The notes under the pieces were generated by a model that was given only the letters and a program-made list of their open reading frames with translations, was not told the DNA's origin and ran no database searches. From Candidatus Moraniibacteriota bacterium (GTDB taxonomy: Bacteria > Patescibacteriota > Minisyncoccia > Moranbacterales > UBA2206), in contig JAAXWW010000006.1 of the NCBI GenBank assembly GCA_013334765.1, forward strand, positions 1 to 53,326: a stretch of DNA of 53,326 nucleotides. Direction: 5' to 3'. Within the stretch, counting starts at the first letter, position 1, and each line of letters starts with the position of its first letter. Positions 6,325-45,592 of the stretch are shown piece after piece. The position numbers were made by a program, and so were the translations under genes.

Positions 6325-6478
6325 GGTTTTGCGTATTTGCATATTGAAACTAATCAATGGAGGCAAATCGACAAACTGTCGAACAGTAACAAGGCTTTAC
6401 CGCAAGTGGAGCCAGTCATACTGCCACTCCCAACTAACAGGCCGGAACATTAGTTTCAATATGCAAATACGCAAAACC
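6325..6478 (-). repeat. ~150 nt hairpin element, family A, copy 1
   Basis: Perfect 30 bp inverted arms 6325-6354/6449-6478; interior is the reverse complement of the interiors at 43862-44016 and 45440-45592. Confidence 0.9.
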
Positions 6479-6502
6479 GCCTTCGTATCAAAACCTAGGA
6501 TA

Positions 6503-7396
6503 CTAATTTGCCTTCTTCGCGCGAACATTGCTCTTGAAATCATCGTACGCTTTTTTGACAGAAAGGGATATGGCATCGCTTGCTTTTTTCCCGACATCCA
6601 TCCGGTTTTTCAGCTTGCGCATGATAGTATAGAAAAATATCCACGGGCGAAGATAGCATCTGGAATTCTTTTTGAAAAAGAAAAGCCCGGAAACGACCAG
6701 CCAATAGATCTTCGCTTCCAGGTTGTCTTCGCTTTTCTCGAAATGCCTGACTTTGGATAGAGGGGAAATAGCCAATTTGAATCCGGCCCGTTTTGCCCTC
6801 ACGCTGAAATCCACATCCTCCCAATAAAGGAAAAAGTCCTCATCCAGAAGTCCGGCTTTGGCGAAGACTTCGCGCCTAATGAGCATCGCGCAGCCGGAAA
6901 CGAAACCTGTTTCGAAAAACTCCTCCTTCAGCTTCTCCGGGGAAGCATCCTCATGCATCGTCCTCATCCGCATCCAATCTATTTTTCCTCCGGAAAACCA
7001 GACGTCGGAAGAATCGCCCCTAGTAATCACCGGGCTTATTATTCCTATGTCCTTGTGCTTCTCCATTATGCCGACAAGGACGGAAAGCATATTGCGTTCG
7101 ATTTCCGTATCGTTATTGAGAAGCAGGATATATTTAGCCTGTTTTTCCAAAGAATATTTGATTCCGACATTGTTTCCCGCTGAAAAACCTAGGTTGCCCT
7201 CGTTTTTGATGAAAGTGGCGCGAGCGAAATCGTTCTTGGCCTCTTCAAGCGATCCGTCTTTGGAATCGTTATCCACCACGACCGCCTCGAAATCAGGATA
7301 ATCCAGCCTGAAAAGGCTGGACAGGCATTTTTTCAAGACATCCTTGCCGTTATAGTTAAGGACTACGATATTTACCTTACATGATGGGTTCTTCAT
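6503..7396 (-). CDS. Glycosyltransferase family 2
   Basis: IVVLNYNG, VDNDSKDGS, NLGFSAGNN, LLNND, GLLDEDFFLYWEDVD. Confidence 0.9.
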   Translation of the reverse strand: MKNPSCKVNIVVLNYNGKDVLKKCLSSLFRLDYPDFEAVVVDNDSKDGSLEEAKNDFARATFIKNEGNLGFSAGNNVGIKYSLEKQAKYILLLNNDTEIERNMLSVLVGIMEKHKDIGIISPVITRGDSSDVWFSGGKIDWMRMRTMHEDASPEKLKEEFFETGFVSGCAMLIRREVFAKAGLLDEDFFLYWEDVDFSVRAKRAGFKLAISPLSKVRHFEKSEDNLEAKIYWLVVSGLFFFKKNSRCYLRPWIFFYTIMRKLKNRMDVGKKASDAISLSVKKAYDDFKSNVRAKKAN

Positions 7397-8822
7397 ATTC
7401 CTTGATGCCCTTTTTGGTGAATATGCTTGTTATTTCAGATGTTTCAACAGCCTTGGATATCCATATGGCGCCTGTATATACTGCCATGCCTATAAATCCG
7501 GCCACGAAGAAATTCATTCCTTTGAGCGCGAAAAGTGCCGCTCCCATAATAATACCCGAAAGGACTATCCTTGGAAACCTTTCCACATGCGGGCTGTATG
7601 CCAGGTATTTCGATGCCAAATACCAGCCCAGAAGGGAAACGAATGCCTCTGTCAGGAAAGATATCCAAGCGGCAGCATTATACGAATAGATCGGAATGAA
7701 GATAAGGTTGGAAGCCACGTTCAGCGCGGCGGCGGCGCCAAGGACATACATAAGCTTCTTCTGCATGTTTCCTGCGATCAGGACCGAGTTGAAGAAATTG
7801 GAGAAGAAGATCATCGATAGCGCGAGAACCAGGATCCTGAGCACATTGGCCGACTCGGCGAATCCTACGCCGCCGATAAGCCTTATGACGCCCTCCGAAA
7901 GGAACATCGTCCCGATGATAAGAGGAATGATCGCCAACACGAAAACCTTGAATGTCTTGTTGGAAATATCCTTGAATCTCTCTTTATTGGAGAAGACGTT
8001 CTGCGCCATTATAGGGAATATGAGGCCCATAATCATAGCCGGGAAAAAGGAGATGTTTTCCAATATCTTATATGCAGCATTATATATCCCGACCTCCACG
8101 TTGGTTTTGAGCATCGAGAGAAGGATGGTGTCCATCTTGAAATAAATGAAAACCACCACCGCGGCAATACCCACCGGATATGACGTCGCGAGGAACTTTT
8201 TCCAATAGGCGAAATCGAATCGGAAGCTCAGTTTCACGTATTTCCTTGACCACAGATATACTAAAACGAAATTCACCATTCCATTGAAGAGCAGCGAGGC
8301 GACGATCCATCCGAATCCGAGCGAAAACCTGACAGCTAGGATGACGACTAGCAGCTGAACCGCTTTCCCGACAAGCTCGGAGATAGCCACTTTGTCCATA
8401 ACCAGGTGTTTTTGGAAAACTCCGTTAAGGACCTGATAGCCGGAAGAGAACACGAATGACCCGGAAATGACGATTATTCCGAGCTTGACCGCGTCGGAAT
8501 ACGGGAAAAACAGTATCAGGATAGGGGAGAGAAGAAACACGACCAATGAGGAAAGCAGCCGGAGCGTGAAGATATTGCTCATTATCTCGCTTTCGTCCGC
8601 GCCTTCATGGGATATTTCCCTGGTCGAAAGCTGATTGAGACCGAGATCGGAAATGGCCGAGAATAAGGACAGGAAGGCAAGGACTGTCGCGTAGTCCCCG
8701 AATCCGTCCTTGCCAAGGCCTCTCGTTATGAATCCGACGGCCGCAAGCGCGAGGACAGTGGAAAGGACTTTCGAAACACTGCTGACAAGCACGTTATAGG
8801 CTATTTTTCTAGCAACGATCAT
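7377..8822 (-). CDS. Polysaccharide flippase (Wzx/MOP superfamily)
   Basis: 481 aa polytopic protein; R.LG..GFG.Y, DLGL, DTILLS, VGIYNAAYK motifs. Confidence 0.88.
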   Translation of the reverse strand: MIVARKIAYNVLVSSVSKVLSTVLALAAVGFITRGLGKDGFGDYATVLAFLSLFSAISDLGLNQLSTREISHEGADESEIMSNIFTLRLLSSLVVFLLSPILILFFPYSDAVKLGIIVISGSFVFSSGYQVLNGVFQKHLVMDKVAISELVGKAVQLLVVILAVRFSLGFGWIVASLLFNGMVNFVLVYLWSRKYVKLSFRFDFAYWKKFLATSYPVGIAAVVVFIYFKMDTILLSMLKTNVEVGIYNAAYKILENISFFPAMIMGLIFPIMAQNVFSNKERFKDISNKTFKVFVLAIIPLIIGTMFLSEGVIRLIGGVGFAESANVLRILVLALSMIFFSNFFNSVLIAGNMQKKLMYVLGAAAALNVASNLIFIPIYSYNAAAWISFLTEAFVSLLGWYLASKYLAYSPHVERFPRIVLSGIIMGAALFALKGMNFFVAGFIGMAVYTGAIWISKAVETSEITSIFTKKGIKEYEEPIM

Positions 8823-8892
8823 GGTTTTTGTGAATGCTGATTAGGAGGATAATCTTATGATATTATACGCCCTTAAGCAATATCTACCAAAT

Positions 8893-8920
8893 AAAAAATC
8901 CCAGGAATAACCCTGGGATT
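8893..8920 (-). terminator. Intrinsic terminator after jag
   Basis: AATCCCAGG/CCTGGGATT stem followed by a T-run on the minus strand. Confidence 0.65.
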
Positions 8921-8963
8921 GGCTATTGAAATTCGCCACACGACGATGAGCAGCTTCCTGACC

Positions 8964-9440
8964 CTATACCAGCTCGACAGGCTTTATGACTATCCGCCTG
9001 TCGTCTCCTTCTCCGATACTCTCCGTCTGGATCCTTTCATCCTTGGACATTTCCAGATGCACCACCCTTCTTTCATATGGAGTCATGGGACGCATCACGA
9101 CGGCCCTTTTCTCAGAAACAGCCTCATCTGCAAGATTCTTTGCCAGCTTGACTATCGACTCATTCTTTTCTTTCCGATAGGAATTGACGTCCAATATGAA
9201 GTTCACATTCTCATCGAAACGCTTCCTGACCATGACTCTTGCTATATGCTGTAGGGACTGCAGATTCACCCCGTATTGTCCGATAAGAAAGCTGGACTCT
9301 TCCGATCTTATATCGCAGATTACGGTCTCCTTTCCTTCCTCTTCAGATTCTTCGATTTCAACTTCCGAAGCAAAACCCATCCTTGAAAGAAGCCCTTCCA
9401 CTATTTCTTTTAATTCTTTGTTCCGTTCTTCTCTTTCCAT
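8964..9440 (-). CDS. jag: Jag/EloR RNA-binding protein (KH + R3H, lacking Jag_N)
   Basis: LIGQYG.NL..LQ KH motif; PMTPYERRVVH R3H motif; conserved position after yidC. Confidence 0.9.
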   Translation of the reverse strand: MEREERNKELKEIVEGLLSRMGFASEVEIEESEEEGKETVICDIRSEESSFLIGQYGVNLQSLQHIARVMVRKRFDENVNFILDVNSYRKEKNESIVKLAKNLADEAVSEKRAVVMRPMTPYERRVVHLEMSKDERIQTESIGEGDDRRIVIKPVELV

Positions 9441-9501
9441 TTGATTTACTTTGCGCTGATTTTCTGCTCGTTGGCAAAAAACGCGTTATATAAATAAATA
9501 A

Positions 9502-10284
9502 TTATCGGGAATCCTTCGCTTTCAGTTCTTCTCGTTGCAGGTATCCCTGCTGAACGATCATGAATAGGGTCGAAACCAGCCAATAAAGCGCCAGTCCGGA
9601 TGGGAACCTGAGACCGATAAGCAGTGTCATCACTGGCGCCAGATAAAGCATCTGCTGGGACATGGCCTGAGAAAAATCAGGATCTTTCTTGTCATTTTTG
9701 GCCTCTTTAGCCTCCTTGGCTTTCGTGCTTTTGGCCATAAGCATCTTAGTCTGAAAGAATTGCGCCGCTGCCGCGGCCACGACCAGTAACAGGCGAACAG
9801 CATTGGAAATGGAAAAATCATGGATATTTGCCGGCACTGACAGATCAAGAAATCCCAGGAACACATGCTTGACGACTCCCGGATTATAAATAAAGGGATA
9901 TATTCCTTCTGCAGCAGCCCCGTCTTTCGAAATATTGAACAGGACCCGATAGATAGCGATCAGGAAAACCAATTGCAGGATCATCGGCAGGCATCCTGAA
10001 AACGGATTGGCTTTGTTTTCCTTATAAAGCTCCATCATCGCCCGGCTTTGCTTTTCCTTGTCATTCTTGTATTTCTGCTGCACCTCCTTTATTTTCGGCT
10101 GCAGTTCCTGCATCTTCTTTTGGGATTCGATCTGTTTCCTGCTGAAAGGGATCAGAACGAATTTCACAAGAATCGTCACTATGATGATAGCTACGCCGAA
10201 ATCGTGCCCAGGAATGATGTTATAGATCAGGATGAGCAGGTTATAGATAGGTTGGTAGATAAGTTCGTTGAATAAGAAAGCCAT
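9502..10284 (-). CDS. yidC: Membrane protein insertase YidC/Oxa1
   Basis: G.AIII.TI, QPKIKE.Q.KYK, NPFSGCLP, PSGLALYW. Confidence 0.95.
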   Translation of the reverse strand: MAFLFNELIYQPIYNLLILIYNIIPGHDFGVAIIIVTILVKFVLIPFSRKQIESQKKMQELQPKIKEVQQKYKNDKEKQSRAMMELYKENKANPFSGCLPMILQLVFLIAIYRVLFNISKDGAAAEGIYPFIYNPGVVKHVFLGFLDLSVPANIHDFSISNAVRLLLVVAAAAAQFFQTKMLMAKSTKAKEAKEAKNDKKDPDFSQAMSQQMLYLAPVMTLLIGLRFPSGLALYWLVSTLFMIVQQGYLQREELKAKDSR

Positions 10285-10324
10285 TTTTTATTTTTTAATA
10301 TTTTGGGCGCGTGCTTTCGCCCTA

Positions 10325-10672
10325 TTATTGAATTAGTTTACCTTTTTTGAGAGCGCAAACGATCATTTCTTCCAATTCACCGCTTTCAAGCTTCTCCTTG
10401 CCGTCTTTCTTAATAAAGACTACCACATCGAGCCCTTTTTTCACACTATCGATATTTTTCCGAAAAATTTCCCTTATCTGACGCTTTATCCTGTTCCTAT
10501 TCACTGCAATTTTTGAAAACTTGATCCCGACCGAAACGCCTATCCGGGTCGCGCCGATAAGATTGTTTCTGGCCTTTATTCCTATAATACCACAAAAAAG
10601 AGGCCTTCCTTGACGATAAACCGCCTCAAAATCACCTCTTTTTATAAGTCTATTCTTATGGGACAACATCAA
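10325..10672 (-). CDS. rnpA: Ribonuclease P protein component
   Basis: RL....F..VY..G, RIGVSV, AVNRNRIKR; synteny with rpmH/yidC; start may be the ATG at 10669. Confidence 0.93.
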   Translation of the reverse strand: MMLSHKNRLIKRGDFEAVYRQGRPLFCGIIGIKARNNLIGATRIGVSVGIKFSKIAVNRNRIKRQIREIFRKNIDSVKKGLDVVVFIKKDGKEKLESGELEEMIVCALKKGKLIQ

Positions 10673-10711
10673 TGTTCTTTTTGATAACCGCCTGATACTT
10701 TAGGCGATTGT

Positions 10712-10849
10712 TTAGGCAGTAGTAAGCCTTTTTCTTCCCTTCTGTATCCTGCTTTTCAAGACATTTTGTCCTCCCTTCGTGCTCTTTCTTTCAAGAAAAC
10801 CATGCCTTCTTTTCCTTCGGAGGCTTTTTGGCTTATAGGTAACGCTCAT
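10712..10849 (-). CDS. rpmH: 50S ribosomal protein L34
   Basis: Below ORF-track cutoff; hand translation MSVTYKPKSLRRKRRHGFLERKSTKGGQNVLKSRIQKGRKRLTTA. Confidence 0.95.
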   Translation of the reverse strand: MSVTYKPKSLRRKRRHGFLERKSTKGGQNVLKSRIQKGRKRLTTA

Positions 10850-10927
10850 TGTCGTCTTACGCTTAACAAATTAGCATTTAGAAGTTTACCAATTAAAAAA
10901 ATAAAAGTCAATCTATCCGGCCTTTTT

Positions 10928-11077
10928 CAGGACTTGCGCATTTGCCTCAAAAACCTTTTAAATCGCGAGGCTGTGCGGAATCCGTCCTGGTTATATATAG
11001 TCCCATCCTGACTCTTAGGAAACTGCTTTCTGTTTCTGGCTAAGAAAAAGGTTTTTTCAGCAAACGCGCAAGTCCTG
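10928..11077. repeat. 150 nt inverted-repeat element in the rpmH-dnaA spacer
   Basis: Arms CAGGACTTGCGCATTTGC..AAAAACCTTTT / AAAAGGTTTTT..GCAAACGCGCAAGTCCTG; outer 14 nt shared with the element at 45440-45592. Confidence 0.75.
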
Positions 11078-11143
11078 TTTCCAATGTGTCGAATGTGCTT
11101 GTTTTTCCCTGACATCCGGCTGCTTTTCGGCTATAGGCACATG

Positions 11144-11164
11144 TTATCAACATGCTTATCCACA
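11144..11164 (+). promoter_or_regulatory. DnaA boxes upstream of dnaA
   Basis: TTATCAACA (11144-11152) and consensus TTATCCACA (11156-11164); extended -10 TGCTATACT at 11192-11200. Confidence 0.8.
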
Positions 11165-11276
11165 CATCCATTGTAATGTTCTTTTTTTTCATGCTATACT
11201 TTTTTTAAACAAATCCACGGGGGCCATAGAATTATCTATCGGGATATTTGTCTTTATAAAATAACCCTTTATTATT

Positions 11277-12650
11277 ATGGTTAACGAGGAACTTTGGCAG
11301 GCAGCCCTAGCTGAAATCGAGCTATCCATTTCCAAGGCGAATTTCATCACTTGGTTCAAAAACACTTCTATCATATCCAATGAGAACGGACATGTCGTCA
11401 TTGGAGTTCCGAACGGTTTTGCCAAAGAATGGCTTGAAAACAAGTATAATTTGTATATTTTAAGGGCTCTTGGCAATATCCAGCCTGAAATAAAGAGCGT
11501 TTCCTGTGTTATTTCCACACCTACTGAGACAAAAACAGTCAATGAGGCCCCGCAGATGGTCGACGCCATAATCGCGCCTAAAAAACCTTTCCCGCGGGAA
11601 ATAGCCGCTCCGATAAGCTTCGAAACCAACCTCAATCCGCGCTATGCTTTTGATAATTTCATTATCGGAGGCAATAATGAGCTTGCCCGGGCTGCTTGTT
11701 TCGCTGTTTCGCAGAATATCGGCCGGATATATAACCCGCTTTTCATTTATGGCGGAGTCGGGCTCGGCAAAACCCATCTGATCCAGTCCATCGGCAATGA
11801 AATCTTAAAGAATAATCCCCAAAGCAAGGTAAAATACATCACTTCGGAAAGATTCACTAGTGAACTGATCGATTCCATAAAAAACCAGAAAATCAATGAA
11901 TTCAAGGAATATTATCAGAAAATGGACCTTCTTATCATCGATGATATCCAGTTCATTTCAGGAAAAGAGAAGACTCAGGAGGAATTTTTCCATATTTTCA
12001 ATCATTTATACCAACTGAACAAGCAGATCGTCCTTAGCAGCGACCGCCCCCCGAAAGCCATCCAGATACTGGAAGAAAGGCTTAGATCAAGGTTTGAAGG
12101 CGGTATGATCGCCGATGTGACTCAACCGGATTTTGAAACAAGAATGGCTATTTTGGAAAAGAAGATCGTGGATGATAACATCCGCATCAGTCCCGAGGCT
12201 ATCAAGTTCATTGCCAGCAATATAAAGAACAATATCCGCGAACTGGAGGGAGCGCTTAACCGGGTAGTCGTTTCAGCTCAGCTGACCAATAAGGAAATTA
12301 CCGATGAATTCGTTGCTAATCAGCTCTCGGAAATAATTTCCAGTGGCAAAAAGAAAGGAATAACCCATAAGCATATATTGAAAGCTGTTTCTGAATTTTA
12401 TGATATCCATATTGATGATCTGGTAGCGAAAAATCGCAAACAGGACGTGGTTCGTCCGCGCCAAATCGCGATGTATCTCATGAGAAGCGAACTCCAGTTC
12501 TCATATCCGGGAATCGGTGAGAAATTAGGCGGAAGGGATCATACTACAGCGATCCATGCTTTTGAAAAGATTGCCAAAGCCTTATCATCTGATGAGAAAC
12601 TGATCAAAGAGATAGGCGAACTTCGCGAACAGCTCTACCAAATAAACTGA
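11277..12650 (+). CDS. dnaA: Chromosomal replication initiator DnaA
   Basis: YNPLFIYGGVGLGKTHL, LLIIDDIQF, RLRSRFEGG, GGRDHTT. Confidence 0.99.
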   Translation: MVNEELWQAALAEIELSISKANFITWFKNTSIISNENGHVVIGVPNGFAKEWLENKYNLYILRALGNIQPEIKSVSCVISTPTETKTVNEAPQMVDAIIAPKKPFPREIAAPISFETNLNPRYAFDNFIIGGNNELARAACFAVSQNIGRIYNPLFIYGGVGLGKTHLIQSIGNEILKNNPQSKVKYITSERFTSELIDSIKNQKINEFKEYYQKMDLLIIDDIQFISGKEKTQEEFFHIFNHLYQLNKQIVLSSDRPPKAIQILEERLRSRFEGGMIADVTQPDFETRMAILEKKIVDDNIRISPEAIKFIASNIKNNIRELEGALNRVVVSAQLTNKEITDEFVANQLSEIISSGKKKGITHKHILKAVSEFYDIHIDDLVAKNRKQDVVRPRQIAMYLMRSELQFSYPGIGEKLGGRDHTTAIHAFEKIAKALSSDEKLIKEIGELREQLYQIN

Positions 12651-12947
12651 AAGTACGAATAACCTGTGGATAACGTATTGATATCCTTAGCAAATACCGT
12701 CTAATAACCTCCTACTCCTGTTGTTATTATCCTGTAACGCTTGCCACCATTAATCATAACCGTCTTAGATATCAACACTACCAAAAACCCTCCTCCTCCA
12801 ATTTATCCCTCTATTATCCACAGATTTTTCAGCTTAAATAAGCCTATATAAATACTTATCCCCTCATAATAGAATCATAGTAATAATAGTAGTTAATTAA
12901 AATATATATAATATAACTATTAAATACATTAGGTATATCATAATCCT
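12651..12947. other. Replication origin oriC
   Basis: dnaA-dnaN spacer with perfect DnaA boxes TGTGGATAA (12665-12673) and TTATCCACA (12814-12822), trio-like TAGTAATAATAGTAG and a very AT-rich unwinding region ~12865-12940. Confidence 0.85.
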
Positions 12948-23220: not shown

Positions 23221-23715
23221 TCAAGTTGATTTAATGCTTGATAGTTTCCTGCTGTGGATGTGGCAGACCGCAATCGCAAGAGCATCTGCCGTATCATCGG
23301 GTTTCGGAACGGATTTGAGGCCGAGAATGTTCTTGGTCATCAGCTGGACTTGGGCTTTTTCCGCTTTGCCATAGCCGGTTATGGCCTGCTTCACTTGAAG
23401 CGGCGTGTAACTTGAAACCTTAACATTATTTCGTTCAAGTGTCAATAGGACAGTCCCGCGAGCCTGAGCTACCTGGATGACGGTTTTCTGGTTCTTGAAG
23501 AAGAAAAGGCTTTCCACGGCTGCTTCCTGCGGATGGTATTTTTCTATTATCTGAGCGATATCGTTCGATATTTCCAGGAGCCTGTCCTCATCGCGGCGGT
23601 CTTTTTCGGTACTGATGTGGCCGTATGCCAGGGCTTGGATTTTTCCTGAAGATTCTTCGATGACGGCCCATCCGGTGGTGGCTGTTCCTGGGTCGATGCC
23701 TAGCACTCGCAACAT
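23221..23715 (-). CDS. ruvC: Holliday junction resolvase RuvC
   Basis: RVLGIDPG, AVESLFF, QARG, VKQAITGYGKAEK, DDTADALA; ORF-track extension to 23757 is translated repeat. Confidence 0.96.
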   Translation of the reverse strand: MLRVLGIDPGTATTGWAVIEESSGKIQALAYGHISTEKDRRDEDRLLEISNDIAQIIEKYHPQEAAVESLFFFKNQKTVIQVAQARGTVLLTLERNNVKVSSYTPLQVKQAITGYGKAEKAQVQLMTKNILGLKSVPKPDDTADALAIAVCHIHSRKLSSIKST

Positions 23716-23820
23716 GGGGCATGAAACATGGGGCATGAAACATGGAACATGGAACACCGAGTTTGGAACATGAGCATGCTACGCGTCGGGAGTTCTATGC
23801 TATGTGTTTATGCTTCATGA
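23713..23820. repeat. CATGRRR heptamer array with degenerate inverted partner
   Basis: catgggg-catgaaa-catgggg-catgaaa-catggaa-catggaa (23713-23754); reverse-oriented units near 23795-23820. Confidence 0.8.
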
Positions 23821-25552: not shown

Positions 25553-25707
25553 AAGGAAGCACTTTAAAAAATAAAAGAACCAAACTCGAACGCTCTGTTT
25601 TCTTTTCAAAATATTCACGCCTCTGATTTGTTAGCGTTCCGCAGAATATTTTGAAGAAAACAGGCATTCTCAAACAGTGTTTCTTTTATTTTTTAAAGTG
25701 CTTCCTT
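25553..25707. repeat. 155 nt nested hairpin element, family B, copy 1
   Basis: Perfect 27 bp arms 25553-25579/25681-25707 and an inner stem CTGTTTTC..TTCAAAATATTC/GAATATTTTGAAGAAAACAG. Confidence 0.88.
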
Positions 25708-25734: not shown

Positions 25735-26733
25735 TCATATCAATTTTCCCGGGCATTTGATTCCGAGATGCTCGTAGGCAAGCTCGGTCACGACGCGGCC
25801 TCGGGGCGTCCTGGTGAGGAATCCTATTTGAATGAGGTATGGTTCGTATACGTCTTCGATGGTGTTTATCTCTTCGCTTGTGGCAGCGGCTATGGTGGAG
25901 AGGCCGACCGGACCGCCTGCGAATTTTTCGATGATAGTCGAAAGGATGTGTTTGTCAGCCGGTTCCAGCCCGATTGGATCGACGTCGATCATTTCAAGAG
26001 CCTGCCTTGCTATCACTCCGTCAACCATCGGATGATCTTTGATCTGGGCATAGTCCCTGACGCGTTTCAAGAGCCTGTTGGCGACACGCGGAGTCCTTCT
26101 GGAACAGAGCGCGATTTCTTGCAGGCCTGACTCATCCATTTTCACATCAAGGATGCGTCCTGAGCGCTCAATGATCTTTTTTATCTCGTCCGTTTCATAG
26201 AATTCCAATCGATGGATGGCTCCGAAGCGGTTCCGAAGCGGGTTGGTGAGTGAGCCGAGTTTGGTGGTCGCTCCGATGAGGGTGAATTTGGGGAGGTCAA
26301 GCTGGATGGTTCTGGCGGATGGTCCTTTGCCGATGATGATGTCGAGCTTGTAGTCCTCCATGGCGGGATAGAGCACTTCCTCGATCGATTTGTTGAGGCG
26401 GTGGATCTCGTCTATGAAAAGGACATCGCCGTCTTGGAGGTTGGTTAGGATGGAGCCGAAATCGCCCACCCGTTCGATGGCAGGGCCGGAGGTTATCTTG
26501 ATGCTGACGCCCATCTCTTTGGCGATGATGTTGGCAAGGGTGGTTTTCCCGAGGCCGGCTGGGCCATAAAGAAGGACATGCTCGATCTGCTCGCTTCTTT
26601 TTCTGGCAGCTTCTATGAGGATCTGGAGGTTTTTCTTGGCTTTTTCCTGTCCGACATATTCTGAAAAGCTCTGCGGTCGCAAAGTCACGTCGAGGTTTAG
26701 GTCGTCATTCTGTTCGTTGGCGCTTGTAATCAT
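25735..26733 (-). CDS. ruvB: Holliday junction branch migration helicase RuvB
   Basis: [49 protein letters not shown]...G...RTPRGR. Confidence 0.98.
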
Positions 26734-26735
26734 AT

Positions 26736-26793
26736 CATGGAATATGGAACATGGAACATACAGCAAAAATGCCTTTTTGTTCCATATTCCATG
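26736..26793. repeat. Inverted heptamer array upstream of ruvB
   Basis: CATGGAATATGGAACA (26736-26751) and its exact reverse complement (26778-26793). Confidence 0.8.
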
Positions 26794-26823
26794 GTCTATG
26801 TTCTGTAATCAGTCTAGCACCAT

Positions 26824-27133: not shown

Positions 27134-27172
27134 GTATTCTTGCATAGCTAGCGGAGAAGGATTGAAAATAAA

Positions 27173-27286
27173 AAAAGAACCAAACTCGAACGCTCTGTTT
27201 TCTTTTCAAAATATTCACGCCTCTGATTCGTTAGTGCTCCACGGAACATTTTGAAGAAAACGGGCATTCTCAAACAGTGTTTCTTT
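27173..27286. repeat. Hairpin element family B, copy 2 (outer arms decayed)
   Basis: 114 nt direct copy of 25573-25686 (offset 1600) with a handful of substitutions. Confidence 0.88.
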
Positions 27287-27324: not shown

Positions 27325-27390
27325 TTCTATAAATCCGTAACTCTTTCCACTTCCGAAAGCGTCGTCTCTCCTTCGATGACGTGGAGGATG
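27325..27390 (-). repeat. Duplicated 3' end of pilB (att-like direct repeat)
   Basis: 62/66 identical to 29060-29125; encodes the same ILHVIEGETTLSEVERVTDL-stop. Confidence 0.92.
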
Positions 27391-29043: not shown

Positions 29044-29061
29044 CTAAGTACCTCAGTTTTT

Positions 29062-32000
29062 CTATAAATCCGTCACTCTTTCCACTTCCGAAAGCGTCGT
29101 CTCGCCTTCGATGACATGCAGGATGCCGTCCTGGGTCATGGTGAGCATGCCGTTTTCGACAGCCTTGTCCTGGAGGTCATTGGTGAGGGCGCCTTGCGTG
29201 ATCATCTCCTGGATATCGCGAGTGAGCTGGAAGACCTCGGAAACCGTCATGCGGCCTTTGTATCCGAGATGGTTGCATTCGTCGCATCCGACAGTCGCGT
29301 ATATCTTTTTGAGTTCCGGAATGGCGATGCCTGATTTCGGGGAAATAGTCTTGATGACGGACTGGATTTTCTCGGCCTCTTCGGGAGTCGGATCGATTTC
29401 TTTCTTGCAATGCGGGCAGAGCCTTCGGACCAGGCGCTGCGCTATGAAGGCATTGACTGAGGTGGCGACGTCCTGCGGCGTGACGCCCATGTTGATCATA
29501 CGGGCGACGGCTCCCGCCGCGTTGTTGGTGTGAATGGTCGAGAGGACCAGATGTCCGGTGAGGGCGGCCTGCACTGCCACCTGCGCCGTTTCGTCATCGC
29601 GGATTTCACCGATCATCATGATGTCAGGATTCTGACGGAGAAGCTGGCGAAGAGCGGTCGCGAAAGTATATCCGCCGGCGTCATTGACCGGAGTCTGCAA
29701 TATCCCTTCCATGCGGTATTCGATCGGATCTTCCACGGTGATTATTTTCACTTCCGGCTTGTTGAGGTGCTGCAGGACGCTGTAGAGAGTGGTGGTCTTT
29801 CCGCTGCCGGTCGGACCGGTATTGAGGATCACCCCGTTCGGTTTCTCGATCTCAAGGAGGATCTTTTCGAGATTCTCTTTCCGGATGCCGAGCTTGGTAA
29901 GGTCGTATTCCAGATTGGCGCTCGAGAGGAGCCTCATAACGACAGTCTCGCCGTATCCGCCGAGGATTATGGAAACACGGACGTCGATCATCTGTTCGGC
30001 GACGTCTTTTATGTCATCATCGAACTTGATGCTGAAACGGCTATCGATCACTCCCTGTCTCACTTCCGTCTTCACTCCGGAGAGAAGCTTTATCTGTCCC
30101 AGGAAATTCGGATATTCGGTCATGGTGATCTTGACGACGGTCTGCAGGATGCCGTCGATCCGGAAGCGTATGTGGACGTCTTCCGAGCCCGGTTCGATGT
30201 GGATGTCTCCAGTGCCCAGGATTTCGGCTGCCGCGAATATTATCTTGGCTATATCGATAGTCTTGGCTTTGGAGACAGCCTCCTGGAGAAGGGAAAAGTC
30301 ATGGACATTCTCTTTCGCTATATCGAATGATTCCTTGTTGACCAGGACCTTCCTTCCAAGGGTCTGGGACATGAGGCGCTCATAGATGTTCTCCAGGAAT
30401 TCTCCTTCTCCGGTCACTCTTTTCACTTCGTCGATCGAAGTGATTCCGGCAATGGCTTTCAATATCCCGTCCTGAAGCATGGTTATCATGCCTGATTCAA
30501 GGGCTGTCATGGTGAGTTCGGTTTCTCCGGCCAGCTCGATGATCAGCTTCTCAAGATCTTCATTGATGGTGAGGATCTCGAATATCCCGCGTCGCCCTTT
30601 GTAGCCGACTCCGTTGCATTTGGGGCATCCTTTCGGGCGGTACAGCTTGGTGATCTCTTTGGGAATCTCGACTCTTGATCGGGGAGAGATGATGGATAGG
30701 ACCTTTTTGATCGAATCGATAGTTTCGGTTGCCGGGACATATTCCTCTTTGCAGAAATCGCAGAGTTTTCTGACTAGCCTCTGTCCGATGATGGCGTTTA
30801 TGGAAGGGCTTATGAGCGACGGCTTCACTCCGAGCTCGATGAGCCGGGGAATGGCTCCGATGGCGCTGTTGGTGTGGAGCGTCGAGAGCACGAGATGCCC
30901 GGTAAGGGATGAATTGACGGCGATGTCGGCAGTTTCGTCGTCTCGGATTTCACCGACCAGGATGACGTCCGGATCCTGACGGACTATGGCGCGCAGGCCG
31001 GAAGCGAAAGTGTATCCTCTGGCTTTTTCGATCTGGGTCTGTGAAATCCCTTCCAATTCGTATTCGATCGGGTCTTCAATGGTGATGATTTTCTTGTCGG
31101 GCGTGTTCAGTTTGTGGATGATGGCATAGAGGGTAGTGGTCTTTCCGCTGCCGGTCGGACCGGTATTGAGGATCATGCCATTAGGTTCATTGATCTGCTT
31201 CTGCAGCTCTTCCCCAGCCAGCCCGACGATTCCGAGCTGTTCCACCTCGACGCGGATGGATTCCGGATCGAGAAGCCTTATGACTATGGATTCGCCGAAG
31301 TTTCCTGGGATGACGGAAACGCGGGTGTCGATTTTCTTGCCGGAAAGATGGACTTCGAAAGTTCCGTCTTGAGCGATATCGCGTAGGTTTATCTTCATGC
31401 CGGACATGATCTTGATACGCGAAAGCACGCTTTTGAAAACGCTCAATGGGAACATAGCGACATCCTGGAGGATCCCGTCGATGCGGTATCTGAGGCGGAA
31501 TTCGTTTTCCTGAGGTTCGATATGGATATCGGAAGATTGGAGGGCATAGGCGCCCGCCATGATGACATTCAATATCTGAGTGACAGGCATCTCCTTGATT
31601 CTTTTCCTGAGGGATACCAGGTTCTTGATAGCCGTTTTGTATTCTTGGAGCTCGTCATCCCCGATACTGAGGCTCAGCTGGTCGATGACGTCGAGAAAGA
31701 CTATCTTTTTGTAGCGCTCCAGGATATTCTTGAAATTGGTGTTGGAAACGACGAAAAGCCTGATTTCCCATCCGTTTTCTTCCGATAGGTGCTTGGCGAA
31801 CTTGCTGGTCTCTTCAGCCGTGGGATTGGGTGAAACCATGCTCACGTTTTTCCCTGCTTTTTGGATGATGGCCATGTTGTATTTTATGGCTGATTCTTCA
31901 GGAAGAAGCCGGAGGTTGTCAGGGGAAACCGGGACGACGTTCGTGTCGATATATGGGAAATTTATGGAAGCGGCGAAAAACGAGGCCTGTTCTTCCTCGG

Positions 32001-32091
32001 AGCGATGGCGGAGTTTCGCGATGATGTCCTGGGTTTCCCGATCTTTTTTGGAATGGTCAAGGGGCGCCTGACCGCTTAATACTTTTATCAT
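29062..32091 (-). CDS. pilB: GspE/PilB-family secretion ATPase with two tandem ATPase modules
   Basis: Two each of DIHIEP, RIDG.LQ, GPTGSGKTTTLY, EDPIEY, RQ.PD...GEIRD, TGHLVLST.HTN, QRLVR.LC..C. Confidence 0.92.
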   Translation of the reverse strand: MIKVLSGQAPLDHSKKDRETQDIIAKLRHRSEEEQASFFAASINFPYIDTNVVPVSPDNLRLLPEESAIKYNMAIIQKAGKNVSMVSPNPTAEETSKFAKHLSEENGWEIRLFVVSNTNFKNILERYKKIVFLDVIDQLSLSIGDDELQEYKTAIKNLVSLRKRIKEMPVTQILNVIMAGAYALQSSDIHIEPQENEFRLRYRIDGILQDVAMFPLSVFKSVLSRIKIMSGMKINLRDIAQDGTFEVHLSGKKIDTRVSVIPGNFGESIVIRLLDPESIRVEVEQLGIVGLAGEELQKQINEPNGMILNTGPTGSGKTTTLYAIIHKLNTPDKKIITIEDPIEYELEGISQTQIEKARGYTFASGLRAIVRQDPDVILVGEIRDDETADIAVNSSLTGHLVLSTLHTNSAIGAIPRLIELGVKPSLISPSINAIIGQRLVRKLCDFCKEEYVPATETIDSIKKVLSIISPRSRVEIPKEITKLYRPKGCPKCNGVGYKGRRGIFEILTINEDLEKLIIELAGETELTMTALESGMITMLQDGILKAIAGITSIDEVKRVTGEGEFLENIYERLMSQTLGRKVLVNKESFDIAKENVHDFSLLQEAVSKAKTIDIAKIIFAAAEILGTGDIHIEPGSEDVHIRFRIDGILQTVVKITMTEYPNFLGQIKLLSGVKTEVRQGVIDSRFSIKFDDDIKDVAEQMIDVRVSIILGGYGETVVMRLLSSANLEYDLTKLGIRKENLEKILLEIEKPNGVILNTGPTGSGKTTTLYSVLQHLNKPEVKIITVEDPIEYRMEGILQTPVNDAGGYTFATALRQLLRQNPDIMMIGEIRDDETAQVAVQAALTGHLVLSTIHTNNAAGAVARMINMGVTPQDVATSVNAFIAQRLVRRLCPHCKKEIDPTPEEAEKIQSVIKTISPKSGIAIPELKKIYATVGCDECNHLGYKGRMTVSEVFQLTRDIQEMITQGALTNDLQDKAVENGMLTMTQDGILHVIEGETTLSEVERVTDL

Positions 32092-32166: not shown

Positions 32167-32212
32167 GGGCTTGCCTATTTGCATATGACAACTAATATTC
32201 CGGCCTGTCAGT
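32167..32212 (+). repeat. Truncated family A element (left arm + start of interior)
   Basis: TTTGCATATGACAACTAAT(A)TTCCGGCCTGTCAGT nearly identical to the corresponding part of the 43862 copy. Confidence 0.8.
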
Positions 32213-32255
32213 AAAAAGACACCCGGCGCCTATTATGGACGCGGGTGTCTTTTTT
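32213..32255. terminator. Bidirectional-type intrinsic terminator
   Basis: AAAAAGACACCCG...CGGGTGTCTTTTTT. Confidence 0.7.
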
Positions 32256-33459: not shown

Positions 33460-33487
33460 CGTGGAGCATGAAACATGAAGCATGGGG
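33460..33487. repeat. CATGRRR heptamer array
   Basis: cgtggag-catgaaa-catgaag-catgggg. Confidence 0.65.
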
Positions 33488-33547
33488 CAGCAAAGCGCGG
33501 CCGGACGCAAGGCTTCCATTTTTCCGAAATACCGCTAAGATTGAGAT

Positions 33548-34002: not shown

Positions 34003-34081
34003 GCGCTTCCCTCGCAGGTATTATTTTACTTGCCTTACGCTTCGCACGGAAGCCGCAAAATAACACCTGCAAGAGAAGCGC
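34003..34081. other. Long hairpin in the polA leader
   Basis: 27 bp stem (complete with G-T pairs on the minus strand) just downstream of extended -10 TGATATAAT (33989-33997). Confidence 0.7.
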
Positions 34082-38239: not shown

Positions 38240-38285
38240 GGCAACCTCTCCCCTGGGTTTTGTTGTTGATTTTAATGTGTATAGA

Positions 38286-38772: not shown

Positions 38773-38801
38773 TTGACTAATCATAATTATTATGATAATA
38801 T
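38773..38801 (+). promoter_or_regulatory. Promoter with 8-1-8 palindrome
   Basis: TTGACT-17-TAATAT; ATCATAAT-T-ATTATGAT at 38780-38796; ATG follows almost immediately (possibly leaderless). Confidence 0.55.
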
Positions 38802-38807
38802 TGCAAT

Positions 38808-39548: not shown

Positions 39549-39557
39549 CCATAATCT

Positions 39558-40406: not shown

Positions 40407-40595
40407 GCATGACGGGTAATAAGGAATGACAGTATGAGGATATGTTAGCAGAAAAAGGGGCTTCGGGGTTTGAATTCGGGCACGATAAGATATGTTTGAC
40501 AAAAACCTATTTTGGCGCATACTGACGTGTTACGTTCTGAGCGAGCGTAATCAGAGAGTTTCTGCTCTTTGAAAATCTATTAAGGGAGATTGAAC

Positions 40596-41270
40596 ATGAA
40601 AGACATGCTCGGTCGTGCAGTAAGGTTGCTTGTGGATGTCCCCGCAAGGATGCTGGGGTCTATCTGCGATCTCCTGGAAAAGGTTTCAGGAAAAGAAGGC
40701 GGCGAGGAATGGCTGGCGGAACTGAAGAAGTTCCTGCTGCGAAAACCTTGCTGGACTGGCGAAGTTGTCAAAACCATCCTCGAGTTCGTAGGCAACGTCA
40801 CGGTTACCCTGACGGCAGGCGAGTTCATTGCCAAGGACAATTTCGTCCTCAATACTGGCAAAAACGCCCGAGTGAAAATTTCTTACTTGGGGGATAACTT
40901 AAAGAAGTATTTCCTCGATAAGATTGAGAATTTCATCGGCGATGGCGATGTTTCTCTCGTCTACAACAAGCTCAAAGAAAGTTCTCGGGATATTCCGATC
41001 ATCTCCGAGCTTGGCGGCGAAGATCAGGCGGAGACCATGCTTGGCGTGATCTTTTCCCTGATGAGCAAGCAGCCCAATGGAGAAGATGGAGTTCTGCTCA
41101 GCAACGGCTACGCGAACATTTTCTACGTTCGCGACGATGTCCAGGTGCTCTGGGCTGTGGGCGTCGGCTGGGGTGGCGACGGTTGGCGCGTCAATGCCTA
41201 CTCCGTCGCTGGTACGAACGGGTGGGACGGTGCCTACCGGGTGTTCTCTCGCAATTCCTCAAACGCTTAA
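40596..41270 (+). CDS. Hypothetical protein with DGR-target-like (CLec-like) C-terminus
   Basis: Own promoter (TTGACA 40496, CATACT 40518) and RBS; ends WAVGVGWGGDGWRVNAYSV....W....RVFSRN. Confidence 0.7.
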   Translation: MKDMLGRAVRLLVDVPARMLGSICDLLEKVSGKEGGEEWLAELKKFLLRKPCWTGEVVKTILEFVGNVTVTLTAGEFIAKDNFVLNTGKNARVKISYLGDNLKKYFLDKIENFIGDGDVSLVYNKLKESSRDIPIISELGGEDQAETMLGVIFSLMSKQPNGEDGVLLSNGYANIFYVRDDVQVLWAVGVGWGGDGWRVNAYSVAGTNGWDGAYRVFSRNSSNA

Positions 41271-41299
41271 GCTCAGACCCTTTGATCCTTAGTACCTTT

Positions 41300-41349
41300 G
41301 ACCCTTTCGAATTCATGGACATCATTCATGATGACGGGAGGGTCTTTTT
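41300..41349 (+). terminator. Hairpin/terminator downstream of the DGR-like target
   Basis: GACCCTTTCG...CGGGAGGGTC followed by TTTTT. Confidence 0.6.
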
Positions 41350-41688
41350 ATTTACTTTAAATTTTGATATAGTGTTTTTGTATTCATGTGATACGCAACG
41401 GTTACGGCTTTTGCGTCATGGGTGCAGAAAATTTTTTGCGAGATTCGTGTCGGGTAAGCCTTGCACGAGAGTGCTGGAGATATTTCTTCAAAAAATACAG
41501 GAATTGGTGCAAGAAGCTGGCGGACTTTTGATGTCCCGAATAAGATTCAATCTGGAGAGTATTCGAAGGATGGTGGTGCAGATGGTATTCTGAGGAAAAA
41601 TACTGCATTTCAGTCAAAATAAAAGACGGCTGTTTGGAAATGCTGTTTTTGGTGTATAATGAATAGGTAATTTTTTTTAAACTTTTCA

Positions 41689-42813
41689 ATGGACAAGAAA
41701 AAGAAAATAATCATTGCTGTCGTTGCGATTGTCGTGATTGCGGTCGGGGGAATCCTTTTTTTCAGATCCCGCGGCAACAGCGGATCACGCCAGAAGATCG
41801 ACCTTAACAAGAAACAGGCAGAGACCGGTCCCAAGAACACCGGTCCGGTCAGCCCGATTTCCGGCATCTCATGCGACGACTGGAATCGCCGGCCGTTCGC
41901 CATTATGGAACCGTCGGACACCTCCGCCCGTCCCATTTCAGGAATCTCGGACGCGGATATGGTCATCGAGATGCCCGCCATTTATGGAAGCATCACCCGC
42001 TTGATGGGCGTCTATGTCTGCGGCAATCCGGAGAAGGTCGGTTCGATGAGGAGCTCCAGGCATGACTACATCCCCCTGGCGGCAGGACTCAATGCCATAT
42101 ATGTCCACTGGGGCGGTTCGCATTTCGCGCTCGACAAATTGAACGAGGGAATCATCGACAACATGAACTGCAACGGCGATGGAGGGAAATCGGCTGCGAA
42201 ATACTGCTATCGTGAGAGCATGGATTATCTGAATCAGGGGAAAGCTTTTCCGGATGTTCCGACCAAGAGCGATGACACTGGATATATGAAATTCGCCGAT
42301 CTGCTGCAGGGTGCCAAGGATTTCGGATATGACCTCACTGACAAATTCGTCGGCTATCCCCATCAGGATGAAGCGTCGGCCGATCAGCGCCCGGCAGGCG
42401 GGAAGCTGCGCGTCGGATATCCTGGTCCGTGGGTGGAAGAGTTCAGCTATAGCAAGGACAACAATTCGTATACCAGGGTCTGGGGCGGAGTTCTCGACAC
42501 GGATCGCAACAACGGCAAGAACATCACTCCGAAAAACATCGTGGTCATGATCGCGGATGGAGCTCAGATGGAAAGCCAATATGCCAACTTCCAAGTCGGG
42601 GATCCATGGTATGACGACAGCGATTCCGGCACCGCCTATTTCTATATGAACGGCCAGCAGATGCAGGGGACATGGAAGAAAGACAAGAGCAGACTGGACA
42701 GCAAGCTGATATTCTTCGATTCCGAAGAGAATGAAGTCAAATTCGTGCCAGGGCAGATCTGGGTCAATATCATCGATCCGGGCATCGGGTTCAAATGGAC
42801 GGCTGCTCAATAA
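41689..42813 (+). CDS. DUF3048 (YerB-like) membrane-anchored protein
   Basis: RP.AIM, ARP.SG...AD...E, ITRLM, GS.RS.R, HWGGS, GTWKK, PGQIWV. Confidence 0.85.
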   Translation: MDKKKKIIIAVVAIVVIAVGGILFFRSRGNSGSRQKIDLNKKQAETGPKNTGPVSPISGISCDDWNRRPFAIMEPSDTSARPISGISDADMVIEMPAIYGSITRLMGVYVCGNPEKVGSMRSSRHDYIPLAAGLNAIYVHWGGSHFALDKLNEGIIDNMNCNGDGGKSAAKYCYRESMDYLNQGKAFPDVPTKSDDTGYMKFADLLQGAKDFGYDLTDKFVGYPHQDEASADQRPAGGKLRVGYPGPWVEEFSYSKDNNSYTRVWGGVLDTDRNNGKNITPKNIVVMIADGAQMESQYANFQVGDPWYDDSDSGTAYFYMNGQQMQGTWKKDKSRLDSKLIFFDSEENEVKFVPGQIWVNIIDPGIGFKWTAAQ

Positions 42814-42888
42814 CAGCGACAGATAGAAAAACAAAAATAGCGAGAAATCTCCCTTTTCCAGGGAGATTTTTTGTGGTAAGATGGGCTC

Positions 42889-43860
42889 ATGATATTCTTC
42901 CTCTATGGCGAAGATTCCTTCAGGTCATACGAAAGGGTCTTGGAAATAAAAGACAGGTTCCAGCTGAGCGACAAGTCGAATTCCGGCTTGTCTTCTTTCG
43001 ATGCGGAAGAAAAAAAGAATGTCTTCGACGAGTTCAGGAAGACATACGAGATGCCGAGCCTCTTTTCGCCGAAACGGCTTCTGGTGGTCAAGAAGGCTAT
43101 TTCGGCGGCGAGTTCCGAAGAGCAGAAGAAGCTGTCGGATTTTCTCAAGGAGAACGCGGAGAGGATATTGAAAGACGAGGATTGGATCGTTGTTTTCTGG
43201 GAGGGAGATATGCCCAAGAAGAATAACGCGCTCTTCAAATTCCTGGAGCAGAATGCCAAGAAGCAGAATTTCGAGGGGCTGTCAGGATTGAAGCTGGAGC
43301 AGTGGGCGATGAAGAAATTGAAAAGCCTGAATGCCGAAGCGGCTATTTCCAAAGACGCGCTCCGGAAGCTCTTGGCCTATGCGGGAAACGATACGGCGGT
43401 GCTTTCGAATGAGATCGAAAAGCTGTTCAGCTATTCATACCCCGGCATGATCAGCGAGGAGATCGTGGATATGCTGGTGAAAGCCCGGATCGATAATAAT
43501 ATTTTCAACACTATCGACGCGATCGCGTCTGGGAACAAGAAAAAGGCGTTTGCCCTCCTTCATAAGCACCTGGAAAAGGATGAGGATCCGTTCTATCTTT
43601 TTTCCATGTTCGTCTATCAGTTCCGCAATCTTCTTAGGGTGAATGACGCGCTTGAAGCTAGGGTCATGCAGGAAGCGCAGATCGCCAAGATGACGCGCCT
43701 GCACCCCTATGTGGTCAAAAAAAGCCTTATGCAAGCCAGGAATTTCGGAAGTTTCCGCCTGAAATCGCTCTATCAGAAGCTCTCGGTTTTCGATCTGAAA
43801 ATAAAGACCGGGTCATTGGATATCAAGCTCGCGCTGGATAAATTCATCGCGGAAATATAG
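42889..43860 (+). CDS. holA: DNA polymerase III subunit delta
   Basis: FLYGED, SLF..KRL, L.NEIEKL, NIF, LHPYV..K, D..IKTG. Confidence 0.92.
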   Translation: MIFFLYGEDSFRSYERVLEIKDRFQLSDKSNSGLSSFDAEEKKNVFDEFRKTYEMPSLFSPKRLLVVKKAISAASSEEQKKLSDFLKENAERILKDEDWIVVFWEGDMPKKNNALFKFLEQNAKKQNFEGLSGLKLEQWAMKKLKSLNAEAAISKDALRKLLAYAGNDTAVLSNEIEKLFSYSYPGMISEEIVDMLVKARIDNNIFNTIDAIASGNKKKAFALLHKHLEKDEDPFYLFSMFVYQFRNLLRVNDALEARVMQEAQIAKMTRLHPYVVKKSLMQARNFGSFRLKSLYQKLSVFDLKIKTGSLDIKLALDKFIAEI

Positions 43861-43861
43861 A

Positions 43862-44016
43862 TGTGGTTTGTACATTTGCATATGACAACTAATGTTCCGG
43901 CCTGTCAGTTGGCAGCGGCAGCATAGTTGGCTCCACTTGCGGTAAAGCTTCTTCGCATTTTAAAGATTGTCAATTTGCCTCCATCGATTATTTGTAATAT
44001 GCACTTGCAAATCATG
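43862..44016 (+). repeat. ~150 nt hairpin element, family A, copy 2
   Basis: Interior GTTCCGGCCTGTCAGTTG...GGCTCCACTTGCGGTAAAGC...ATTTGCCTCCAT; imperfect arms pairing through G-T. Confidence 0.88.
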
Positions 44017-44032
44017 CTCTGCGCAAAGGCTT

Positions 44033-44899
44033 TCAGTTTTTCGAATTCAGGATCTTGTTTTTGAAATCTTCGAGGCTGTTCCTGTTGTCGATCCGGATCC
44101 TTTTCAGGTCGAAAAGATTGCCTTTGAAATCCGCGATTCCCGGTTCCGTGGTGAACGCGCCAGAGTATCCGTTTTCTTTGAGGTATCCTTGGATCTTTTC
44201 ATTGTAGTCGCCCGATGGATAAACGAAGAAGGGAACCTTGATGTCATAGTGATATTCCAAAAAATCGCGGCTGTCCTTGATTTCAGCCCGCAACCTTTCG
44301 TCGGTCGATTCTTTGAGGTTCGGGTGCGTCATGGAGTGCGACATGAGTTCTATGCCGTAGTCGGAAATCTCTTTCAGCTGCGTTCCCATCATGAATCCGG
44401 AGTGGTCGATCTTGTCTATGATGATCGCCTCTGAAGCGCGGAAACCGTTGCTTTTGAGGATCGGGAAAGCGGCGTCATAAAAATCGCTGTATCCGTCATC
44501 GAAAGTGAGGATGACTGATTTTTCGGGGACGTCTCCTTTGATAGCCATGCTTGGGGTGATGGCGCTGTAGCCGTTGTTCTTGAGCCATTCCATTTCCTGC
44601 TTGAAAAGTTCCGGGTCGGTCGAAAGGTTGTATCCGAGGAAGTCTTCATCCTTGTCGACTGAACGGATGTAGTGATACATGAGTACGGGGATGTTCCCGC
44701 TTGGAACCAGATTGCCGCTAGGCGCTTCGGGCTCTTTTTCTTCCTGCTGGACAGGCGCATCCGGCTCAGAATATTTCAAGTCAGCCGGATCTTTTCCCGA
44801 CACAGAACTGCTTTCGATAGTTTCGACTTGGACGGTTTCTTTCGCTTGGCATCCTGAAAGGAATAAAACAGCGATAAGGATAAGCAACATCTTTTTCAT
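44033..44899 (-). CDS. Polysaccharide deacetylase (CE4) lipoprotein
   Basis: Lipobox LSGC; IPVLMYH, LTFDDGY, SHSMTH, YPSG, RIRI. Confidence 0.9.
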   Translation of the reverse strand: MKKMLLILIAVLFLSGCQAKETVQVETIESSSVSGKDPADLKYSEPDAPVQQEEKEPEAPSGNLVPSGNIPVLMYHYIRSVDKDEDFLGYNLSTDPELFKQEMEWLKNNGYSAITPSMAIKGDVPEKSVILTFDDGYSDFYDAAFPILKSNGFRASEAIIIDKIDHSGFMMGTQLKEISDYGIELMSHSMTHPNLKESTDERLRAEIKDSRDFLEYHYDIKVPFFVYPSGDYNEKIQGYLKENGYSGAFTTEPGIADFKGNLFDLKRIRIDNRNSLEDFKNKILNSKN

Positions 44900-44926
44900 G
44901 ATTCCATTATAGCTTTTATGTCCGGA

Positions 44927-44966
44927 TAAAAAAACGCCCGGTCTTTCCAAATGGGACGGGGCGTTT
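44927..44966 (-). terminator. Intrinsic terminator after rpsT
   Basis: AAACGCCC...GGGCGTTT stem with long T-run on the minus strand. Confidence 0.65.
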
Positions 44967-44976
44967 CGCGTGCGGA

Positions 44977-45252
44977 CTATTTCTTTGTCAATGCGGCGCT
45001 TTTCACGAGGGCGTTCAGTCTGGATTTCTTTCTCGCGGCAGTGTTCTTGTGAAGGACTTTCTTCTGCGATGCCTTATCGATAGCCTTCAGCGTTTTCTTG
45101 AGATGCTCCTGGGCCTTCTCGATGTTCCCGCTAGCGAGAGCTTCCTTGGTGGCTTTCATGGCGCTTCGGAAAGCTCCTTTGATTTTGCGGTTCTTTTCGG
45201 TCTTGTGCTCGGTGACCCGCATGTATTTCTTGGCTGCTTTTATGATCGGCAT
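44977..45252 (-). CDS. rpsT: 30S ribosomal protein S20
   Basis: MPIIKAAKK, IDKA..K.V.HKNTAARKKSRL. Confidence 0.95.
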   Translation of the reverse strand: MPIIKAAKKYMRVTEHKTEKNRKIKGAFRSAMKATKEALASGNIEKAQEHLKKTLKAIDKASQKKVLHKNTAARKKSRLNALVKSAALTKK

Positions 45253-45439
45253 AGTTCTATCGCTCACGCACAATGCGCATTAATGAGATGCTGGATTGCT
45301 ATTCGGAGCTGTTTTAAGGGTTTAAAGATTCTGACTAAGAGCTTTGTCCATTGGGATAGACTTTATTATTTCTATCACAGGTTCCGTTTTTTGGCAAGAA
45401 TAGGGGGAAATGGTAGAATGGCCTCATGATGATGGGTGC

Positions 45440-45592
45440 GGACTTGCGCGTTTATATATGCCAACTAATGTTCCGGTCTGTCAGTTGAGAGCATTAGTAC
45501 AGTTGGCTCCACTCGCGGTAAGGCCTGTTCATGCTCGATAGCTTATCGATTTGCCTCCATTGATTAGTCGGCATATATAAACGCGCAAGTCC
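45440..45592 (+). repeat. ~150 nt hairpin element, family A, copy 3
   Basis: 30 bp arms with one mismatch (GGACTTGCGCGTTTATATATGCCAACTAAT / ATTAGTCGGCATATATAAACGCGCAAGTCC); same interior as copies 1 and 2. Confidence 0.9.

Follow-up and report, generated by a model that had tools for sequence, protein, structure and literature searches.

A dispersed ~150-nucleotide repeat family with inverted arms and compensated arm changes in a relative of Candidatus Moranbacteria

Among the short inverted-repeat elements of bacteria, Correia elements carry a TA duplication. REPINs, which are mobilised by RAYT (TnpA-REP), commonly show compensatory changes across their hairpin, and a single-stranded DNA intermediate has been proposed for them in the account drawn on here (PMC3116915). 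Integron attC sites, as presented in PMC3458562, are recombination sites defined by the structure of a folded single strand and not by sequence. Template switching at replication is described as turning imperfect inverted repeats into perfect ones (PMC5941160, PMC7202029). Here we describe a repeat, family A, found in contig JAAXWW010000006.1 of a Candidatus Moraniibacteriota bacterium (assembly GCA_013334765.1); "the window" denotes the whole stretch of 53,326 nucleotides (nt) that was analyzed. The two intact copies of family A consist of 30-nt inverted arms around a core of 93 or 94 nt. The arms of these copies differ in sequence from one copy to the other, yet remain complementary within each copy, and their outer ends carry a motif that is also found at the ends of an element with an unrelated core.

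The family comprises three full copies of 153-155 nt and one fragment in 53.3 kb. Copy A1 (6325-6478, minus strand) is intact, with 30-nt arms and a 94-nt interior. Copy A3 (45440-45592, plus strand) is also intact, with 30-nt arms (29/30 paired) and a 93-nt interior. Copy A2 (43862-44016, plus strand) is decayed: the interior blocks are retained, the arms pair in part, and a small hairpin in the interior is broken. Fragment A4 (32167-32212, plus strand) is made up of 46 nt, namely the 5′ arm followed by 16 nt from the start of the interior. A first-pass annotation had placed homologous copies at these positions, and the alignment of the copies, in which the homology is directly visible, agrees with it, as do a profile hidden Markov model and a covariance model, each built from A1, A2, and A3 only. 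The nhmmer profile recovers the full copies by construction (E = 3e-53, 3.8e-53, and 1.6e-51). With the filters of the covariance model switched off, these same training copies score 155.6-183.7 bits on the sense strand. Fragment A4, which was left out of profile building, was found by nhmmer at E = 1.3e-11. Family A is thus a real repeat and not a chance match. Neither the nhmmer profile nor the covariance model found a further copy in the 53,326 bases. The covariance model did match positions 34004-34080 (23 bits), just upstream of polA, where an imperfect hairpin has 25-nt arms and a 27-nt loop. This is a different hairpin without the terminal motif described below, and it was picked up only because the model scores stem architecture.

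We compared the arms of the copies position by position. The arms of A1 pair at 30/30 positions and those of A3 at 29/30, and arm identity between the two copies is 67-70%. Nine of 30 positions differ in the 5′ arm and 10 of 30 in the 3′ arm. Together these differences amount to 10 changed pairs, nine of which are compensated on both sides and one of which is broken; a rough calculation puts the chance of nine compensated double changes at ~3e-9. Four of the nine, read by eye from the arm alignment, are transversion double changes, for which no route by way of a wobble intermediate exists. None of the 59 pairs in the intact arms of A1 and A3 is a G-U pair, an outcome expected with a probability of 0.002-0.05 if 5-10% G-U were typical. 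The sole mismatch in the A3 arms is A-C on the strand that the first-pass annotation took as sense and would wobble only on the opposite strand. The 28 arm cells of A2, by contrast, hold 21 Watson-Crick pairs, one G-U pair, and six mismatches, so the proposal that the arms vary but stay complementary within each copy holds for A1 and A3 and fails for A2. These comparisons support the view that arm pairing is actively maintained.

The variable positions in the arms recur at the same places. An alignment of nine ends shows variation only at columns 3-4, 10-11, 15-16, and 21-23; these four clusters are the same in all ends, and the sequence that separates them is conserved. The outer 16 nt of the arms follow a conserved terminal motif, GGNNTTGCGNNTTTRY, that has eight matches in the window versus 1.03 expected, a count reached in 0/100 shuffles. 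Seven of the eight matches are element ends, namely both ends of A1, of A3, and of a further element, C, and the left end of A4. The eighth, at 3757, is a stray match inside a gene and contains one mismatch. Moreover, the outer 14 nt of A3 and of element C are identical. The earlier contrast between family A and a miniature inverted-repeat transposable element (MITE) with sequence-conserved ends is therefore not borne out. "Empty" short palindromes with the arm motif, which would be possible targets for core insertion, do not occur in the window.

Element C (10928-11077) is 150 nt long and lies in the rnpA-dnaA spacer, the presumed origin region. Its 32-nt arms are 88% complementary and enclose an 86-nt interior that aligns with the family A interior no better than shuffles do. 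The trinucleotide TTT stands on both sides of the element and is uninformative as a target duplication. A third type, element B1 (25553-25707), lies 28 nt past the ruvB stop and has 30-nt arms that are 97% complementary. Its 95-nt interior is itself a long hairpin, and the element folds as a nearly full-length hairpin (z = -10.5/-9.1); both its interior, which is unrelated to that of family A, and its arm sequence are different. Element B2 (27156-27286), 1.6 kb away, is a second copy of the B interior with 90% identity, and the arms flanking it, read by eye from the sequence, pair only in part. When the interiors of A, B, and C were aligned and compared with shuffles, kinship among them was rejected. 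All four of the strongest short-range inverted repeats in the window have arms of 30-32 nt and spacers of 86-95 nt. Family A is one of at least three families with a common build: 30-32-nt inverted arms, an 86-95-nt core, and a total length of ~150 nt. This common build, with common termini around unrelated cores, would point to shared end-recognizing machinery, and the shared termini indicate that these are probably mobile elements rather than one RNA gene family.

Three blocks within the interior of family A are 86-100% identical, as against 44-67% for the intervening segments (Fisher p = 7e-6 to 9e-5, with the blocks defined from the same data). Between A1 and A3 alone, the blocks are 89-100% identical. 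These values agree with the conserved blocks first noted by eye and support a slower evolution of the blocks relative to their surroundings. The compensatory change reported for the small hairpin (alignment columns 97-111) is present as one compensated pair between A1 and A3, but the hairpin is broken at 2/6 pairs in A2. An additional stem, in which columns 41-48 would pair with 61-68, had been described as closing with G-U pairs on one strand only. It is indeed paired in 24/24 cells, on the sense strand only, but its five variable pairs all show one-sided changes, with no double change among them. By eye, these changes are transitions opposite G or U, so the pairing is kept automatically. The stem appears neither in the minimum free energy (MFE) folds nor in the RNAalifold consensus.

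Folding energies separate the intact copies from the decayed one: compared with shuffles, A1 reaches z = -9.3 and A3 z = -7.7, and A2, at z = -1.1, folds no better than shuffled sequence. The two strands fold about equally (-68.8 vs -66.4 kcal/mol; consensus, -56.3 vs -54.6), and the centroid obtained with DNA parameters retains exactly the arms and the small hairpin. Given strands that fold alike, the 0/59 G-U count, and a lone mismatch that wobbles on the antisense strand, the suggestion of a strand-specific RNA is not supported. We also carried out the Rfam check proposed in the first-pass annotation, and no RNA family matched family A: at the gathering threshold the only match in the window was the tRNA at 46195-46265, and searches in E-value mode with A1 and A3 gave nothing meaningful. 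No promoter-like site was found inside the scanned copies, and the only terminator-like consensus match, at 45436-45449, straddles the 5′ end of A3. An anti-Shine-Dalgarno (anti-SD) role, previously considered for the invariant CCTCC, is unlikely because only 6/45 open reading frame (ORF) starts in the whole window have even a loose SD-like motif upstream (≤18 nt); the host seems to start translation largely without SD pairing. Finally, family A has no coding capacity. No frame is open across the copies, every frame having stops in at least one copy. To look for spurious ORFs called over other copies, the antisense frame that is open in A1 was compared with 1.84 billion protein representatives; the three matches, all to repetitive, unrelated proteins at 25-39% identity, were rejected.

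The explanation that we favor, at about even confidence, is that family A is a non-coding, non-autonomous foldback mobile element of a MITE- or REPIN-like kind, with arms that are matched at the DNA level. The presence of dispersed copies together with a truncated and a decayed copy supports a mobile element. Matching at the DNA level is favored because the intact arms contain 0/59 G-U pairs and include transversion double changes, because the strands fold alike, and because Rfam gave no match. In the mechanism that we propose, the arms would carry a terminal recognition motif in which conserved bases alternate with free positions. Matching of the two arms at the DNA level would keep the free positions Watson-Crick complementary, and it could come about by either of two routes: the element may exist for a time as a folded single strand, as has been proposed for REPINs (PMC3116915), or mismatches may be corrected at replication when the template switches from one arm to the other (PMC5941160). 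The first-pass suggestion of an element mobilised as single-stranded DNA is possible. Copies that no longer undergo matching would decay, as A2 may have done. Where an element is co-transcribed, it would put a long hairpin into an untranslated region (UTR), as other bacterial MITEs do.

Judged by sequence, the host is an uncultured bacterium of the candidate phyla radiation (CPR), a relative of Candidatus Moranbacteria. Its DnaA (11277-12650) is 73-78% identical to Candidatus Moranbacteria/Parcubacteria proteins, with a nearest match at 95%. The window spans the replication origin (~11-13 kb): rnpA, dnaA, and dnaN are present, and the cumulative GC skew turns at ~11-12 kb. All family A copies are intergenic and occupy unrelated settings. 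Two glycosyltransferase genes that run in the same direction on the minus strand (6503-7396 and 5472-6287) flank A1, and A2 begins 2 nt past the holA stop (43860), between convergent genes. Copy A3 stops 22 nt short of the ruvA start (45614), and its own start is 21 nt downstream of a promoter-like site, TTGGCA-17-TAGAAT (45391-45419, plus strand), which is a consensus match only (10/12, with TG). If used, this site would place A3 in the ruvA 5′ leader. Fragment A4 has a minus-strand gene on either side, and a hairpin resembling a terminator (32217-32250) directly abuts it. The sense strand lies on the template of the lagging strand for 4/4 family A copies, a bias with n = 4 that is confounded with gene direction in 3/4; the exception, A4, follows the direction of replication and not that of transcription. 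A lagging-strand-template bias is described for IS200/IS605 elements (PMC5027513).

Several observations weigh against a mobile element. The whole covariation argument draws on two intact copies, A1 and A3. The interior blocks have changed less than the arms and are still 91-94% identical in the decayed A2, which agrees better with selection on the sequence in place than with a repeat that is purely selfish. Each of the three full copies has the sense orientation of a gene next to it. The scanned ORFs of the window include no transposase, recombinase, or HUH protein, and no direct target duplication flanks A1 or A3. Nor is there an empty site or a copy from another genome, so we only infer mobility. 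Some of these observations could be explained by a cis-acting structured RNA in UTRs or intercistronic regions, in which selection on the transcript would keep the stem at each locus. A long double-stranded processing or stability signal of the RNase III type with conserved single-stranded blocks would be one example, and Neisseria Correia elements are described as binding RNase III and altering the expression of neighboring genes (PMC2649163). Such an RNA would fit the sense placement of 3/3 full copies (the ruvA leader, between the glycosyltransferase genes, and after holA), but A4 is antisense to both of its neighbors, the scanned copies lack a promoter-like site, and the only terminator-like match straddles the 5′ end of A3. 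The contrast between blocks (86-100%) and intervening segments (44-67%), with retention of the blocks in A2, would also fit an RNA, as would the compensation seen at pairs of the small hairpin and of the arms. However, the arms contain no G-U among 59 pairs, their lone mismatch wobbles only on the antisense strand, and the folds of the two strands are about equally good. The stem between columns 41-48 and 61-68 would speak for an RNA in that it pairs in 24/24 cells on the sense strand only, but it lacks a double change and is missing from the MFE and consensus folds. The arm ends are, in addition, common to element C with its unrelated interior, and Rfam gave no match. On this balance we regard a cis-acting RNA as unlikely.

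Another candidate is an ordinary MITE of the cut-and-paste type that stems from an insertion sequence (IS) elsewhere in the genome. In that case the covariation would reflect only sub-families that go back to IS variants with different inverted repeats, with no folded intermediate. A conserved terminal motif common to families with different cores would fit, and the size, the AT-rich intergenic sites, and the stable hairpin fit the description published in PMC10969869. Separate binding of the two ends by a transposase, however, needs no match between the free positions, which agree within a copy (9/9) though they vary between copies. The lack of a target duplication at A1 or A3 and interior blocks that are more conserved than the ends also disagree with this origin, and we consider it quite unlikely. 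More improbable still is an inverton, in which the core between the arms would be inverted by a site-specific recombinase and the arms would stay identical through recombination. Perfect 30-nt inverted repeats that enclose a short stretch ahead of genes, a polysaccharide locus among them, would suit an inverton, but no promoter-like site lies inside the copies, the window's scanned ORFs include no recombinase gene, and one copy, placed where two convergent genes end, has nothing to switch. In addition, a spacer of 94 bp is very short for inversion. Returning to the foldback mobile element, a more specific form of it would be an undescribed CPR class that is mobilised as a single strand, an idea that we regard as doubtful. 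Here a core of ~94 nt would be carried in a hairpin whose stem is read by its shape together with spaced conserved bases. Unrelated cores would share the stem ends and a putative HUH-type or recombinase enzyme, and the lagging-strand-template polarity would be fixed.

Searches outside the window were made at several levels. A scan of a contig collection (without the window's own genome) with the best-conserved interior block gave 22 single matches in unrelated phyla, which we take as chance because none of them matches any other part of the element. A blastn search of A1 against plasmids and phages gave no match, and the literature searched contained no description of such repeats in these bacteria.

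The window contains further repeats. Runs of 7-nt units resembling CATGGAA occur at 23699-23770, 26731-26805, 33460-33500, and 48270-48324. Some of these lie just upstream of ruvC and ruvB, and the run at 26731-26805 is a 33-nt inverted pair; the runs may represent a tract of slippage or an array of repeated sites for protein binding. Three tandem 32-nt units at 50189-50284 stand just upstream of a large ORF (50295-53324; >1000 amino acids) that has no Pfam or NCBIfam match. Two long repeats lie within this ORF, one at 51663-51853/52920-53110 and a second, 100% identical, at 51994-52120/53200-53326. AT-rich direct repeats of ~42 nt at 46418-46507 separate the tRNA gene (46195-46265) from a gene for a Fic-domain protein (46522-47871). 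Positions 27325-27390 and 29060-29125 hold two copies of a 66-nt stretch with 94% identity. The second of these overlaps the 3′ end of a double T2SSE/PilB-like ATPase gene (29062-32091), and the first, just past the stop of a TrmB-like gene, looks like a stray copy of the end of the ATPase gene.

Seven elements from the three families cover ~940 nt, or ~1.8% of the window, although CPR genomes are small and tightly packed. If mobile, these elements would offer a first handle on transposition in this lineage and a natural case in which hairpin shape is inherited beyond the end sequence. If they act in RNA, they would form a shared regulatory layer on DNA-repair and cell-envelope genes.

Family A can be set beside four described systems. 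Quasipalindrome correction would yield compensated, purely Watson-Crick arm changes like those seen here, but it explains only the matching of the arms and leaves the existence of a repeat family, the common termini, and the conservation of the core unaccounted for. The attC sites flank cassettes in arrays beside an integrase, whereas family A copies are single and lie between housekeeping genes, with no integrase among the scanned ORFs of the window; their neighbors are holA, ruvA, glycosyltransferases, and a PilB-like ATPase, without a cassette array. The centre of attC sites is variable, in contrast to the conserved core of family A. As in REPINs, two inverted arms and a spacer form one long hairpin that shows compensatory changes and is non-coding, intergenic, and multi-copy. 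Nevertheless, the ends of REPINs are their most conserved part and the spacer is variable, whereas in family A conservation is higher in the interior blocks than in the arms, and no RAYT gene was found among the window's scanned ORFs. The dimensions differ as well, with 30-nt arms and a 94-nt core in family A as against a REP-to-REP distance of 71 bp for the GI type as given in PMC3116915. Correia elements and other bacterial MITEs (ERIC, RUP, QMITE) have target-site duplications and ends that are conserved between copies; family A lacks a duplication at A1 and A3, and its ends vary at set positions and match within a copy. They resemble family A in their length of ~100-200 nt, in a conserved core enclosed by inverted repeats, and in an intergenic, co-transcribed placement with a stable hairpin in the transcript, as described in PMC2649163 and PMC10969869. 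Like MITEs in general, family A is short (153-155 nt, below the limit of about 300 bp) and non-coding, ends in terminal inverted repeats, and is present in several dispersed copies.

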